Positions 4,521 through 48,387 are shown, counted from the stretch's first letter. The stretch is DNA of 64,000 nucleotides from Stegostoma tigrinum (GCF_030684315.1 NC_081379.1:44969404-45033403); one strand, 5' to 3'. The notes: a model not told the origin generated them from the sequence alone. A program made the numbers and translations.

Positions 4521-4719
4521 ATGGCTCACACGAGAATTTCTGCCAAGTATCCTCCTCACATCGACCCGACCAAGGCGCCCATTGCCTTCGGGGACCGCGC
4601 TTTGCCCAAGCTGAAACGGGAGCTAGCGGATCCCGATCTCCTGGTCCGGCAACGGGCCCTCATGGCTCTGTGTGACTTGCTGCACGACCCCGAGTTAGCT
4701 TACACGGCGGTCGAGGTCG
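4521..4719 (+). CDS. RSPH14: Radial spoke head 14 homolog, coding exon 1
   Basis: MAHTRISAKYPPHIDPTKAPIAFGDRALPKLKRELADPDLLVRQRALMALCDLLHDPELAYTAVEV resembles the RSPH14/RTDR1 N-terminus. 199 nt, donor G|GTAAGT, phase 1. Confidence 0.92.
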
Positions 4720-6165
4720 GTAAGTGAAGGCCCTCTTCACTACTTGCACAACACACAATTAAGAAAAGGGAAGGTGCCAGTCAGTTTGGAGGAACTGCAG
4801 GGCGCCGAGGAAGTTGGGTGTATCAACATGGTCCCTTGTCTGCTTCATTCCTTAACTTAGCTGCTCAATAAACGTGACTTGTACAAATGCATTTGTACAC
4901 ATTATCTACTTATTATAACAATAGGTATCTATTACATACGAAAAATAAATCCGTTATCGTAGACGTAGATTAACCGAAGAAAGGTTTCGTCGTCAAGGTA
5001 TGTAGGCACTAATAAAAAGAAACTAATAATTGGAAATTAACTTCTGGTCCTACTCCATTGTGAAGTATAAGACTTGTCAAACCAATATGCCTTAGTTGCC
5101 AGTTTTACAGTTTTCTTTCTAAGGCGAAAATTAAGGCCAACTCTCAGATTACTGCTTCACTTCCCAGACTTACCATTAACACTAACCCCTAAATCTCTCT
5201 GGAGAGATTTTTCAGTGACAAAATACCATGATCGAGCGATGCCAGTCATTTTCATTTCGATTCCATACCTCCAAGCCAAATCCATCAGCATCCCTATTAT
5301 TGTCTCAGGTTGAAATCCCATTTACACATTTTTTGGGAATGTCTGCTGAATGTTTTATTCAACATCCAGTTTATCACGTGCAACATGTCCAGCTAATTGG
5401 GGTCTCAACTTTTAAGATTGAATTTTCCAAAACTGCTGGTTCAATCCTTCAAAAATAACAGTTGCTGTTGAATTTGGGAACTTGAGTATTGTCCTACATT
5501 GATTGATGGTCACTAAGCACTCCTGCCCTTCCATAATTTCCTGTGCCCAATGATCCAGTTTTCCAATCCTTGGTTTATCCTATTTTGAAGAATGTTCAGA
5601 ACTGAGGAGGACACCCAGCAAAGCAAACTAAGTGCAAACAGCAGCCTTTTGGAATCCTCTTGGATGCAGATCAGGAGTACAATCGCCAAAAAAAACTGAC
5701 ACTAGCTACTTTCCAAGTTGATGTTATTAAAATGCACTGTCAAAGAAAACATGCTGCATAAAAATAAAGAAAGATTACAGAGAATATTGCCAGTCACTGA
5801 TTATATATGCAATGAAATTTGGAAAGAAATGTATCTATATAACTTTGATCAATTAATTGCTGTTGCATCTCTTTACTTCTATAATTTTGAATGACAGGTT
5901 ATTAAGTATGCATCCTTTCAGTAGAAGAGAAATAAAAACTTAGTGGTAAGGTGGAAGCACAACATTTAATAAAAAGTATAACTTGTAATTGGAAACAATG
6001 CAAAGAACAGAATTATGCTTTTTAAAATTCACTCATGGGGTGAGAGAGTGTTGCTGGCTGGGCCAGCATTCGTTACCCAACCTGAGTTTCCCTTGAGAAG
6101 GTGGGAGTGAGCTCTTTCCTGTGGACAATTGTTCATTGATTACCTTCCTTTGAACCTGCAGTATT

Positions 6166-18228: not shown

Positions 18229-18331
18229 GCTGTTTGGAGAACTTAAAATTTCTTTTGAAGGATGAGGATGCTACTGTTCGTCGCAAGACCACAGAAATTT
18301 TCTATATTTTGGTTACACATAGTATTGGAAG
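18229..18331 (+). CDS. RSPH14: Radial spoke head 14 homolog, coding exon 2
   Basis: Acceptor ttttttttccttcag and donor AG|GTAAGA; 103 nt; in frame with exon 1, encoding (G)[33 protein letters not shown](R), an ARM/HEAT-like segment. Confidence 0.92.
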
Positions 18332-30465: not shown

Positions 30466-30584
30466 ATTTGCATTTTTGGAAAATGATGTCATTATGCCAT
30501 TGTCTGAGCTGCTTGAAGATCCTGAGGACATCTGTCGCAAAAACATGCATATGGTTCTGGAGATGTTCTCGCAAATCCCAGCAG
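30466..30584 (+). CDS. RSPH14: Radial spoke head 14 homolog, coding exon 3
   Basis: Long polypyrimidine tract ending tgcag; donor CAG|GTAGGA; 119 nt; in frame, encoding (R)FAFLENDVIMPLSELLEDPEDICRKNMHMVLEMFSQIPA(G). Confidence 0.92.
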
Positions 30585-33910: not shown

Positions 33911-34636
33911 AAGATAATGGGAACTGCAAATGCTGGAGAACCCAAGATAACAAAGTGTGGAGCTGGATGAACACAGCTCGCGGGAAACCAAGTGGAGGCT
34001 TGAGGACTGCTTTGCAGAACACCTACGCTCGGCTCGCAATAAACAACTGCATCTCCCAGTCGCGAACCATTTCAACTCCCCCTCCCATTCCTTAGACGAT
34101 ATCTCCATTCTGGGCCAACTGCAGATGCCACCCGAAGGTTGCAGGAACAGCACCTCATGATCCACTTGGGAACCCTGCAGCCCAGTGGTATCAATGTGGA
34201 TTTCACAAGCTTCAAAATCTCCCCTCCCCCTACTGCATCCCAAAACCAGCCCAGTTTGTCCCCGCCTCCCTAACCTGTTCTTCCTCTCACCTATCCCCTC
34301 CTCCCACCTCAAACCACACCCCCATCGCCTACTTACTAAGCTCATCCCGCCTCCTTGACCTGTCCGTCCTCCCCGGACTGACCTATCCCCTCCCTACCTC
34401 CCCACCTACACTCACCTCTACAGGCTCCATCCCCACCTCTTTAACTTGTCTGTCTCCTCTCCACCTATCTTCTCCTCTATCCATCTTTGATCCGCCTCCC
34501 CCTCACTCCCTATTTATTTCAGAACCGTCTCCCCCTCCCCCTTTTCTGATGAAGGGTCTAGGCCCGAAATGTCAGCTTTTGTGCTGCTAAGATGCTGCTT
34601 GGCCTGCTGTGTTCATCCAGCTCCACACTTTGTTAT
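33911..34636 (+). mobile_element. 5'-truncated PLE with inverted short pLTR and 16-bp TSD
   Basis: Inverted tail at 33911-33977, then GIY-YIG ETKWRLEDCFAEHLRSARNKQLHLPVANHFNS and the tail. CTCCTCCACTGAGTTA is duplicated at 33895-33910 and 34637-34652. Confidence 0.9.
34546..34573 (+). ncRNA. Minimal hammerhead ribozyme motif (mutated)
   Basis: CTGATGA-AGGGTCTAGGCCC-GAAAT-GTC; one change from the copy at 47954. Confidence 0.55.
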
Positions 34637-34711
34637 CTCCTCCACTGAGTTATTCAGTTGTCTACCGGTATTAATAAATGGATGTGGCAGGACTGCAGCG
34701 CTTTGATCTGA

Positions 34712-45500: not shown

Positions 45501-46657
45501 CTTTGACATTCTGGATCATCTGTGCATCCTTAGGGGATCTTCAGCTGCAGCTTTTTCACGGAAACTATTCAGCAAATGCTGGAGGGTACTTTAGATATTG
45601 GGCTGACTAAAGTATTTACGGCTTTTAATTTCTCTGTGCTGTCAGAGCACATGGCTCCAATGATAACCCCTTCTGTAGCAGGATCTCAATTGGATGTGGT
45701 TTCAATGAATGTGTGTGGGGAATATCAGAAACAGAACAGTTTCTTAGTAAAGTGAGCATTCAGCATTTGCATCACACACAAATGACAATTTAGCACAGTC
45801 TTCTATGTGATGGGGCATGGGAGACCCAGACAAGAAAAACTATGGACAATGTTCCTCCTAACTTTCTTACTGGCTTTGCCGGCCTCAAGTCTGTGTGTGA
45901 CAGTAACTTCTGGAATTGGAAGTCAGTGCCACATACTGATTACCACACATGGAACCTAGGTGTGCACAGCCACATAGTTTAGAGGGAACATTGCCCATGG
46001 AATGACATTATTTGGACCTTTGTAGGGGACTTCATTCCAATATATGACTTCATATCCAAGCTATGCTGTGCACATACAGTTGGAGATTGTAAATGCAGTA
46101 GGATTACCGAAAAATTACCCTATAGCCCCACTATTCACGCCACCTACATCACTAAAGAAAAGCAGCATTTTGCTGAATACTTACAGTTCAAGGTGAGAGG
46201 TAATATGTGACCTTTTGATCCATGACCTGTGGGACTTTGGATCATCTTAATGAATTGTGGCTCATAAGTAACACTTTTAAGGTCACCTGTAATTACTTCT
46301 GCTTCATGCACTGATCCATATCCACATGGTTGGACAGTACATTCATTTCACATGCAGAGTGCTGTGATTACTGATGTCCTCAACTGTGTAGATGCCTGAT
46401 CAATGCATTTGAAACTTGAAGGACTTCACATTACTCACAATTACAATCTGCATGTACAGAGGAAAAGAAAAGACTTCCTATGCCTATTCTGGGTGTGGTT
46501 ATGACCATTTTCCATTTCCACTGCACATTTGCCATTTAGACAAGAATGGAAGCTAAAAGAGATAATGGGAACTGCAGATGCTGGAGAATCCAAGATAATA
46601 AGTTGTGAAGCTGGATGAACACAGCAGGCCAAGCAGCATCTCAGGAGCACAAAAGCT

Positions 46658-46685
46658 GACGTTTCGGGCCTAGACCCTTCATCAG
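46658..46685 (-). ncRNA. Minimal type-I hammerhead ribozyme motif in PLE tail
   Basis: Minus strand CTGATGA-AGGGTCTAGGCCC-GAAAC-GTC: core boxes, stem II GGGT/GCCC and a GUC cleavage triplet. Confidence 0.7.
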
Positions 46686-47003
46686 AGAGGGGGATGGGGT
46701 GAGGGTTCTGGAATAATTAGGGAGAGAGGGGGAGGCGGACCGAAGATGGAGAGAAAAGAAGATAGGTGGAGAGTAGAGCATAGGTAGGGAGGTAAGGAGG
46801 GGATAGGTCTGTCCAGGGAAGACGGACAGGTCAAGGAGGTGGGATGAGGTTAGTAGGTAGGAAATGGAGGTGCGGCTTGGGGTGGGAGGAAGGGATGGGT
46901 GAGAGGAAGAACAGGTTAGGGAGGCAGAGACAGTCGGGGCTGTTTTTGGGATGCAGTGGGTGGAAGGGAAGAGCTGGGCTGGTTGTGTAGTGCAGTGGGG
47001 GAA

Positions 47004-47209
47004 GAGAGATCTCCTCTCCCTCACAGTGGGGTAAAGGTGAGTGAGTAGTCTGAGAGATCTCCTCTCCCCTACAGGGGGGAGAGGAGATCTCTCAGACTAC
47101 TCACTCACTTTTACCCACCTGTAGGGGAGTGGGTTCTCTTAGACTACTCACTGACTTTTACCCCCCTGTTGGGGGACAGGGGGGGAAATCTCTCAGACTA
47201 CTCGCTCAC
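47004..47209. repeat. ~48-54-bp minisatellite with internal inversion (perfect 33-bp hairpin)
   Basis: AGACTACTC recurs at 47094, 47141 and 47195; inverted units start at 47004 and 47052. 47037-47069 is the exact reverse complement of 47076-47108. Confidence 0.9.
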
Positions 47210-47623
47210 CTTGCTGATAGTGCTGTGGTACGGGTGCTCGGCGTCCATGGGGGGCGGCGGGATGTCGAACGACCTCCTCCAGACGCGGACCTGCTCCTCC
47301 CCGTGGCGGGCGGCGGTCTCCGCCTTGTTGAGGCTGGTCAGGGCGCCGTAGTGCCGCTCGTTGAGGCGCCAGGAGCGGGTGATGGGCAGCCACATCTGGT
47401 CGGTGGTGTCCAGGATGATCCAGAGGGTGCGGATGGCCCTCCGCAGCACCGAGGTGTAGCAGCAGTCGAACAGGTAGCCGGCATCCCGCAGGGCCTCGGC
47501 CTCCCGCTGCGCCTCGCCGACCCCCTTCTCGCTCAGCTCCGCGTCGAACCAGCCGCAGAAGCGGTTCTCCTGGTTCCAGGTGCTCTCGCCGTGCCGCACC
47601 AGCACCAGGCGGTGACACGCCAT
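47210..47623 (-). pseudogene. PGAM2: Phosphoglycerate mutase (PGAM2-type) first exon, isolated unprocessed copy with open frame
   Basis: [67 protein letters not shown]; 138 codons with the RHG motif, then a phase-0 AAG|GTGAGC donor. An uninterrupted 414-nt first exon fits PGAM2 rather than PGAM1 (from recalled human gene structures). No downstream exons were recognised. Confidence 0.8.
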
Positions 47624-47953
47624 CGCCGCAACGGAGACCGGGTCCGACTCAGGCGCCGCTCCGCAGGCCGCGCCTCCCCCCACTGCATCCCAAAACCAGC
47701 CCAGCCTGTCTCTGCCTCCCTAACCTGTTCTTCCTCTCACCCATCCCTTCCTCCCACCCCAAGCCGCACCTCCATTTCCTACCTACTAACCTCATCCCCC
47801 CTCCTTGACCTGTCCGTCTTCCCTGGACTGACCTATCCCCTCCCTACCTCCCCACCTATACTCTCCTCTCCACCTATCTTCTTTTCTCTCCATCTTCGGT
47901 CCGCCTTCCCCCCTCTCCCTATTTATTCCAGAACACTCACCCCATCCCCCTCT

Positions 47954-47981
47954 CTGATGAAGGGTCTAGGCCCGAAACGTC
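47954..47981 (+). ncRNA. Minimal type-I hammerhead ribozyme motif in PLE tail
   Basis: CTGATGA-AGGGTCTAGGCCC-GAAAC-GTC, identical to the left-arm motif. Confidence 0.7.
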
Positions 47982-48387
47982 AGCTTTTGTGCTCCTGAGA
48001 TGCTGCTTGGCCTGCTGTGTTCATCCAGCTTCACACTTTATTATCTTGGAAGCTAACAGAGGTTGTCCTTTGCGGAGTGAATTGTGGGCTCAGCCGGGTA
48101 ATCAAAGGGCTCCCCGATATCTGTATGTTCTTTTTTCTGCTGACCCCATCAGAATGTGCTTTCATATGTTATCACTAAACTCTTTCATTGAAGTCTTCAC
48201 TGTACAATTTACCTTCCAAGCTCTGGCATTTCAGCTTAGTTGTGCTGCACTGCCTTGCCATCAAAGTCAGGGTAATTGTGAATGTCAACAATTCTCCCCA
48301 CCTCCTGCAGTAAACCATATCTCATAATATATTGTTCTCTCCCACCCTGATATTTTGAGTTCCCTCTGCACAATTACTGTCTCCTCT

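Follow-up and report, generated by a model that had tools for sequence, protein, structure and literature searches.

A PGAM2 gene fragment at the seam of a fold-back Penelope-like element insertion in Stegostoma tigrinum

INTRODUCTION

In the rotifer Adineta vaga, a Penelope-like element (PLE) mobilized an intron-containing host gene that lies between pLTRs, is bounded by a target site duplication (TSD), and has an empty allele (PMC3846280), and host gene capture is cited as a trait of PLEs in PMC8557442. According to the rotifer study, a tail-to-tail arrangement results from self-priming on a sense template; that study leaves open whether an antisense template or unspliced sense RNA accounts for the retention of introns by PLEs. 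The protein of an anole PLE cleaves both strands, extends them, and initiates at two sites between which the tail lies; the steps after priming are left unvalidated in that report (PMC11167929). L1 insertions combine sequence from two different RNAs and also incorporate additional cDNAs (PMC11702581, section 7), and L1 mRNA chimeras are described as mostly sense, spliced, and often ending at splice donors (PMC11702581, bioRxiv 10.1101/2024.08.27.596794, and PMC13174262). Templated insertions from distant loci are known in humans, and experimental ones are largely RNA-derived (PMC5110952).

The insertion described in this study looks like a vertebrate case of the gene-fragment capture that was previously known in rotifers. 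As in Adineta vaga (PMC3846280), host sequence including an intron lies between PLE ends inside one TSD, an empty site exists, and the PLE acted in trans; in the rotifer, however, a whole gene is held between two direct pLTRs and an inverted one, whereas here a 670-nt fragment occupies the seam of inverted arms and, unlike the rotifer gene, is itself folded tail-to-tail. The unit shares its outer geometry, a tail on one arm, and 5' truncation with the inverted-pLTR insertions of EN+ PLEs, for which no host cargo at the seam is described (PMC8557442; PMC11167929). As in L1, both target ends were extended, an inversion carries a short internal duplication, the joints have microhomology, and foreign sequence lies inside one TSD (PMC11702581, bioRxiv 10.1101/2024.08.27.596794, and PMC13174262); unlike L1 products, the unit has no polyA, and an unspliced cargo is enclosed by its two element arms. 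Class 1 and 2 templated sequence insertions resemble the unit in being copies of a distant locus whose donor is intact, in admitting intronic sequence, and in having a proposed RNA origin, but the unit is bracketed by PLE arms and has a TSD without the polyA of class 1 (PMC5110952). A literature search at the level of titles and summaries, in which subscription literature was thinly covered, found no PLE exon capture in a vertebrate. The first-pass annotation of this DNA had also been aware of no vertebrate case; the rotifer precedent (PMC3846280) makes the novelty weaker than was stated there.

RESULTS AND DISCUSSION

Structure of the insertion

The window, i.e., the whole stretch of DNA that was analyzed, comprises 64,000 nt (GCF_030684315.1, NC_081379.1:44969404-45033403), and coordinates given without a prefix refer to it. 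The parts of the unit other than its cargo are as follows.

46547..46561, plus strand: left TSD copy, 15 bp, 1 mismatch against the right copy; its last letters overlap the end of the PLE tail
46559..47004, minus strand: left arm, a PLE 3' end with a tail of ~33 nt, interrupted within the second C-rich repeat, close to the end of the ORF
47673..48046, plus strand: right arm, a PLE 3' end without the tail, broken off in the last C-rich repeat
48047..48061, plus strand: right TSD copy, 15 bp; the target is single in organism B

The two arms are 96% complementary over 376 nt (46589-46964 against 47675-48050), point outward, and enclose a non-PLE gap of 664 nt, and both lie inside one 15-bp TSD with 1 mismatch, which reads TGGAAGCTAA[A/C]AGAG at 46547-46561 and 48047-48061. 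This agrees with the first-pass annotation, which had recognized two outward-facing PLE 3' tails of ~96% identity around ~660 nt of non-PLE DNA in a single TSD-flanked unit. The four letters after the right arm (48046) are compatible with both the PLE and the TSD.

Six of the 23 listed sequencing runs were used in the comparisons (X1, X3, X4, X5, X6, and X9), and contigs of four runs were compared with the window. One 645-nt contig of organism B (run X9) joins 46279-46546 to 48047-48370 with zero letters between them; it contains the target once and neither the arms nor the PGAM sequence. An empty orthologous site had been named beforehand as the decisive observation, and the uninterrupted target of organism B provides it. 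The same contig rules out that this relative carries the PGAM exon here without the arms, and a separate TSD for each arm is ruled out by the one TSD around everything. The data support a single TSD-bounded event in which the unit and its cargo came together, and it is highly probable that this was one PLE event whose cargo was copied from PGAM2. Compared with organism B, the flanks show 40 differences in 599 sites, and the cargo shows 4 in 464 compared with its donor, so that the insertion is much younger than the species split. The right flank of the unit has one match in the assembly (contig depth is not a copy number).

Three of the junctions, namely, flank/left arm, cargo/right arm, and right arm/flank, are covered with no mismatch by short-read contigs of organism A; these contigs enter the repeat by only 20-28 letters, which is below the 31-letter bridging rule, and the runs possibly represent the assembled sample. 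No contig across the whole unit or across the left arm/cargo junction was found among the listed contigs of the compared runs. The arm pair differs at 17 of 374 sites and has no derived variant in common. The 96% identity of the arms was considered as a sign of a single event or of one RNA and was set aside as uninformative, being equal to the median difference of 4.6% between unrelated arm pairs (n = 770). An assembly artefact, or two independent PLE insertions followed by recombination, would be compatible with arms that are no closer than unrelated copies and with the lack of a listed contig spanning the whole unit; it is nevertheless extremely unlikely, considering the single TSD, the uninterrupted target in organism B, the three junctions crossed without mismatch, and the substitutions of the copy's own, and the 17 arm differences are normal beside the 9-23 differing sites in nine other same-insertion arm pairs. 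Misassembly, which had been raised as an objection to the unit, is thus improbable, short of its exclusion by a spanning read.

Structure of the cargo and its donor gene

The cargo occupies the following positions between the arms.

47004..47079, plus strand: piece B, repeat units of PGAM2 intron 1 (donor L002 2085-2162) in sense orientation, ending in a run of six G
47077..47209, minus strand: intron part of piece A, the start of PGAM2 intron 1 (donor 1964-2101), forming a hairpin with piece B
47210..47623, minus strand: coding part of piece A, the PGAM2 first exon, 138 codons in an open frame
47624..47674, minus strand: 5' UTR of piece A (donor 1499-1549), with 2 letters common to the right arm

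The contents, a PGAM2-type 5' UTR, a 414-nt first coding exon, and an intron start, agree with the PGAM 5' UTR, exon 1, and intron start of the first-pass annotation, but they do not form a single colinear piece, which that annotation had missed. Instead, two pieces are joined tail-to-tail, 76 nt of sense intron (47004-47079) being followed by ~600 nt of antisense sequence (47077-47674). Piece A (47674 to 47077) corresponds to donor positions 1499-2101 and is antisense on the plus strand. Seventeen donor nt are common to the two pieces, which are joined at their 3' ends via GGG/CCC; owing to the tandem repeats of the intron, they form a strong hairpin. A TATA-like box, itself not copied, lies 23-25 nt ahead of the copied 5' end. 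At the right joint, 2 exact letters are shared and 9 of 12 match in all, which places this site among the 9 best of ~3,400 donor positions; at the left joint, 1 letter is shared. Unlike a processed pseudogene or a class 1 templated sequence insertion (class 1 TSIP), the cargo retains the intron start, and no polyA, cap trace, or splice junction marking it as RNA-derived was found within it. Strand-biased deamination of the cargo was considered and rejected: the intron changes relative to the donor assembly go both ways, and some of them recur in several repeat units and may belong to an old donor allele.

The cargo exon has three matches in the genome, i.e., the unit itself, contig C232 at 99%, and contig C24 at 76%. 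The gene on C232 is a complete, intact three-exon gene with 4 differences from the copy in 464 nt, which supports the origin of the cargo from a distant PGAM locus and identifies the donor that the first-pass annotation had left to be found. The product of its first exon has its closest match in PDB 6h26 and is less similar to PGAM1; on the basis of this match and of the three-exon layout, we take the gene to be PGAM2. The coding changes of the copy are G41E, V81I, and G97S plus one silent change. Organism B and run X5 have the donor letters at the three amino acid-changing sites, and the contigs of X3 and X4 (organism A) mix donor and copy alleles.

In runs X5 and X6, exon 1 is spliced to exon 2, so that these contigs are RNA-derived; they cover the donor from positions 1478 and 1491. 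PGAM2 transcripts include the whole copied 5' end. The contigs of both runs reach into, or close behind, the TATA-like box; they come from a single study, stop at different places, and cannot show where transcription starts. They carry the donor letters, which speaks neither for nor against expression of the copy, no run being recorded as RNA. DBNL, the neighbor gene in humans, would be a candidate source of an antisense transcript through PGAM2; no motif of such a neighbor was found in 40 kb of C232, and a literature search gave no useful result.

Two further features of PGAM genes were observed. The start of PGAM2 intron 1 (L002:1964-2200) is a tandem repeat of 47-54 nt in which each unit opens like a splice donor and in which copy and donor have diverged more than in the exon. 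The second three-exon PGAM gene (G000:C24:13,066,861-13,072,201) has the same long first exon, 76% alike in DNA.

The element family and its usual geometry

Sequence evidence supports the reading of the arms as the ends of a high-copy PLE family with RT and a GIY-YIG endonuclease (EN+). A 729-aa frame of a related copy matches RVT_1 at an E value of 2.5e-5, which is below the Pfam cutoff, and a GIY-YIG-type motif was read by eye in the family translations, with no Pfam hit for the motif. Each arm of the unit contains a putative hammerhead motif, and a second fold-back unit lies elsewhere in the window.

46656..46685, minus strand: minimal hammerhead-like motif of the left arm
47954..47983, plus strand: minimal hammerhead-like motif of the right arm
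33912..34638, strand not assigned: older fold-back PLE unit used for comparison, a separate event with a 16-bp TSD and no filler

The putative motif folds with two stems at a z-score of -0.27. A search of Rfam gave no hammerhead match, only generic hairpin matches below gathering scores. The comparison element had been annotated at 33911-34636 as having the same outer geometry without cargo, and this is what was seen at 33912-34638.

TSD-bounded fold-back units were called with a library of four long copies and three short 5' pieces. Sixty-three were found in loci amounting to 675 kb (mostly chosen for their likeness to the arms, and including the PGAM2 unit), 9 in the next 200 kb of the window's contig, and 34 in a sample of 800 kb taken from four further contigs. 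The tail is present on one side only in 103 of the 106 fold-back units, which are 5'-truncated inverted copies; the inverted-arm outer geometry is the default of the family. Scaling up from the unselected 1.0 Mb, in which 43 units were called, gives a rough figure of ~140,000 per genome. Fillers of at least 20 nt occur in 10 of the 106 units. Seven of these fillers are PLE-derived or of low complexity, judged by eye or by a match to another element, and three are host DNA, i.e., those of the PGAM2 unit, of a unit on contig C9, and of a unit named L140. The C9 filler is a 481-nt inverted copy, at 99%, of DNA lying 0.3-0.8 kb downstream (G000:C9 ~60,166,900-60,167,590, in L223). Among the other 105 units, 1 thus has distal cargo (95% interval, 0.02-5.2%) and 1 has local host DNA.

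Further forms of the family were noted. Twenty single arms lack a TSD (L015, L019, L022, L028, L036, L039, L043, L045, L046, L051, L068, L081, L093, L097, L098, L100, L105, L107, L108, and L115); no convincing TSD that would reveal a long hidden cargo was found within ~10 kb of them. Some of these arms are 98-99% alike to the library and possibly represent target deletions or halves of rearrangements. An 89-nt piece of a different hammerhead-bearing repeat, by eye another PLE family, lies between fold-back arms at L117:4197-4285. Young TSD-bounded units of short tandem copies are present at L058:845-1945, L059:385-1885, L061:1272-2210, and L069:372-1179, in which the 3' end of the element is joined to its 5' start, in both orientations. 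An open frame of 890 residues lies beside a PLE unit at L121:803-3472 (reverse complement numbering).

Origin of the cargo

In the scenario that we favor, and to which as a whole we give an even chance, a cut-short unspliced PGAM2 RNA primed itself, was reverse-transcribed, and bridged two PLE cDNA ends. The process began with a staggered cut by the PLE endonuclease, which is evident from the 15-bp TSD and from the empty site. Both DNA ends would then prime reverse transcription of PLE RNA, the two start sites used being those that delimit the tail, and both copies would halt in C-rich repeats; priming at two sites is suggested because of the one-sided tail and the in vitro work on the anole element. 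A PGAM2 transcript ending ~200 nt into the ~3-kb first intron may have folded its G-run onto a C-run and may have been copied to near its 5' end. Most of the RNA would subsequently be lost, leaving a remnant that reads B-sense and then A-antisense, whose ends would be joined to the two G-rich cDNA ends via 1-2 exact letters; the junctions can be read directly, and their order is presumed.

The arrangement of the top strand, with sense B followed by antisense A and the pieces meeting 3' end to 3' end, was counted in favor of RNA self-priming. An RNA that ends inside the ~3,070-nt intron 1 cannot be spliced, which would explain why the intron was retained in the cargo. When the RNA of the present donor sequence is cut at the same G-run, it folds into a terminal hairpin, as it also does at 28 of 200 sampled intron end points. 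Also in favor of the RNA scenario are the other end of the cargo, close behind the TATA-like box, the transcripts that contain the copied 5' end, the priming by the anole protein at two sites, the two-RNA insertions of L1, and the mainly RNA-derived templated insertions of experiments. A literature search on snap-back priming of pre-mRNA found nothing relevant. Against self-priming, the folded donor RNA pairs the G-run with the adjacent C-run and not with the C-run one repeat unit upstream, so that the model needs pairing one unit upstream, or else one 54-nt unit must have been lost. The 17 nt shared by A and B also resemble twin priming on one antisense strand (bioRxiv 10.1101/2024.08.27.596794).

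A further point against RNA self-priming is that both PLE cDNAs, read from the target ends, run on into sense PGAM2, which is also expected if the two ends copied the template DNA strand of the donor. DNA copying is a close rival, to which we assign a substantial though lesser probability: one or both of the G-rich PLE cDNA ends would have invaded the promoter region of PGAM2, which is open and transcribed, and would have used genomic DNA as the template, with both ends copying the template strand and meeting via GGG/CCC or with one end making a U-turn onto the displaced strand. Since the right joint uses one of the 9 best of ~3,400 donor sites, homology alone could have picked a site near the transcript start, and at this same position the donor sense strand changes from strongly C-rich to balanced. 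DNA copying explains the retained intron without an extra step, the local 481-nt filler at 99% indicates that the family copies nearby sequence, and templated insertions of L1 copy genomic DNA (PMC11702581 and bioRxiv 10.1101/2024.08.27.596794). However, the published DNA-templated pieces of L1 are mostly <250 bp and local (bioRxiv 10.1101/2024.08.27.596794), whereas here 670 nt came from another contig. In addition, both the end near the transcript start (1 of 9 equal sites) and the snap-back-competent G-run (28 of 200 ends) would have to be coincidences. No feature of the unit separates RNA from a displaced sense DNA strand as the template.

The L140 unit illustrates another route that exists in the same genome.

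L140:709-4372 (G000:C2 ~121,427,300-121,430,970): TSD-bounded fold-back PLE, the L140 unit
L166:4771-7116 (G000:C4 ~35,605,800-35,608,100): match to the L140 cargo beside a truncated PLE

L140 carries 706 nt of the DNA that flanks the truncated PLE on C4 (89-93%), and its two arms end at the same PLE position, have a common 10-nt deletion, and enter the same flank. The unit has the appearance of a 5' transduction in which one read-through RNA was inserted through twin priming; since the C4 element has no TSD of its own, C4 is only the presumed source. The PGAM2 cargo would have arisen in the same way if a truncated PLE, now lost, once lay at the PGAM2 start in the opposite orientation and if twin priming served to retrotranspose an antisense read-through RNA that comprised intron, exon, and PLE. 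Although antisense templates are argued for in PMC3846280, we consider this origin improbable. The shared PLE-host junction and the source PLE at the donor that make L140/C4 a positive control are absent from the PGAM2 unit. Its two arms break off at different points of the PLE and continue at different points of the donor, and the left arm has ~43 nt of PLE that the chimeric RNA would lack. The assembled donor start has no PLE, the nearest PLE pieces to exon 1 being old and lying ~3.1 kb upstream and 5.9 kb downstream, and the contigs of X3 (organism A) and X9 (organism B) continue upstream of the donor exon with no PLE among those listed.

Because the arms join different PLE and different donor positions, no pre-existing chimeric element appears to have been copied. 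This bears on the "Pack-PLE" of the first-pass annotation, in which PLE machinery moved a host exon in one event. The PLE ends, the distant cargo, and the one TSD-bounded event stand, but a self-contained element that can move again is not supported, the cargo-bearing unit being present in one copy, with the donor and the 76% paralogue as the other matches. It is very improbable that the unit is a non-autonomous element which moves as a whole by means of its inverted ends and thereby spreads the cargo. The unit does have both hammerhead-like motifs, the tail, and the TSD, and for the rotifer it was proposed that pLTRs suffice in cis (PMC3846280). However, insertion produces inverted arms by default (103 of 106 units), and they are not inherited termini. 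For the unit, capture at the seam between twin-primed arms is a better description than a new mobile element. Pack-MULEs and Helitrons likewise hold a gene fragment with intron sequence between inverted ends and a TSD; they are DNA transposons whose termini permit further moves. In contrast, the arms in this study are products of one insertion that has no second copy.

Since the donor is identified, the empty site is available, and all junctions are readable, this insertion offers a concrete test of PLE models. It suggests that a PLE-rich vertebrate duplicates intron-containing gene fragments between chromosomes without the marks sought by retrocopy screens. A broader idea, that the shark PLE RT routinely self-primes promoter-proximal unspliced host RNAs and seals them between twin-primed ends, is speculative and in our view rather unlikely. 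If it were true, host DNA from distant loci would be present in ~1% of the ~140,000 fold-back insertions, some of it in the form of intact first exons together with the beginning of the intron; vertebrates would have an L1-independent route of gene-fragment shuffling; and there would be a natural record of why PLEs keep introns, which would point to unspliced sense RNA rather than antisense RNA.

Presumed intronic position in RSPH14

The exons of the host gene that were recognized in the window are the following.

4521..4721, plus strand: first coding exon of RSPH14, from a PDB search match
18229..18331, plus strand: further RSPH14 exon, read by eye
30466..30584, plus strand: further RSPH14 exon, read by eye

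With the motifs used, no RSPH14 exon downstream of the unit was located in the next 200 kb, and the unit is therefore only presumed to be intronic. The cargo exon is antisense to RSPH14, and the gene fragment looks inert there, its sequence giving no sign of function. A G-protein alpha exon is present on the minus strand at G000:C34 ~45,204,640-45,205,660 (in L163). This exon is a candidate for GNAZ, which in humans lies in the long RSPH14 intron.
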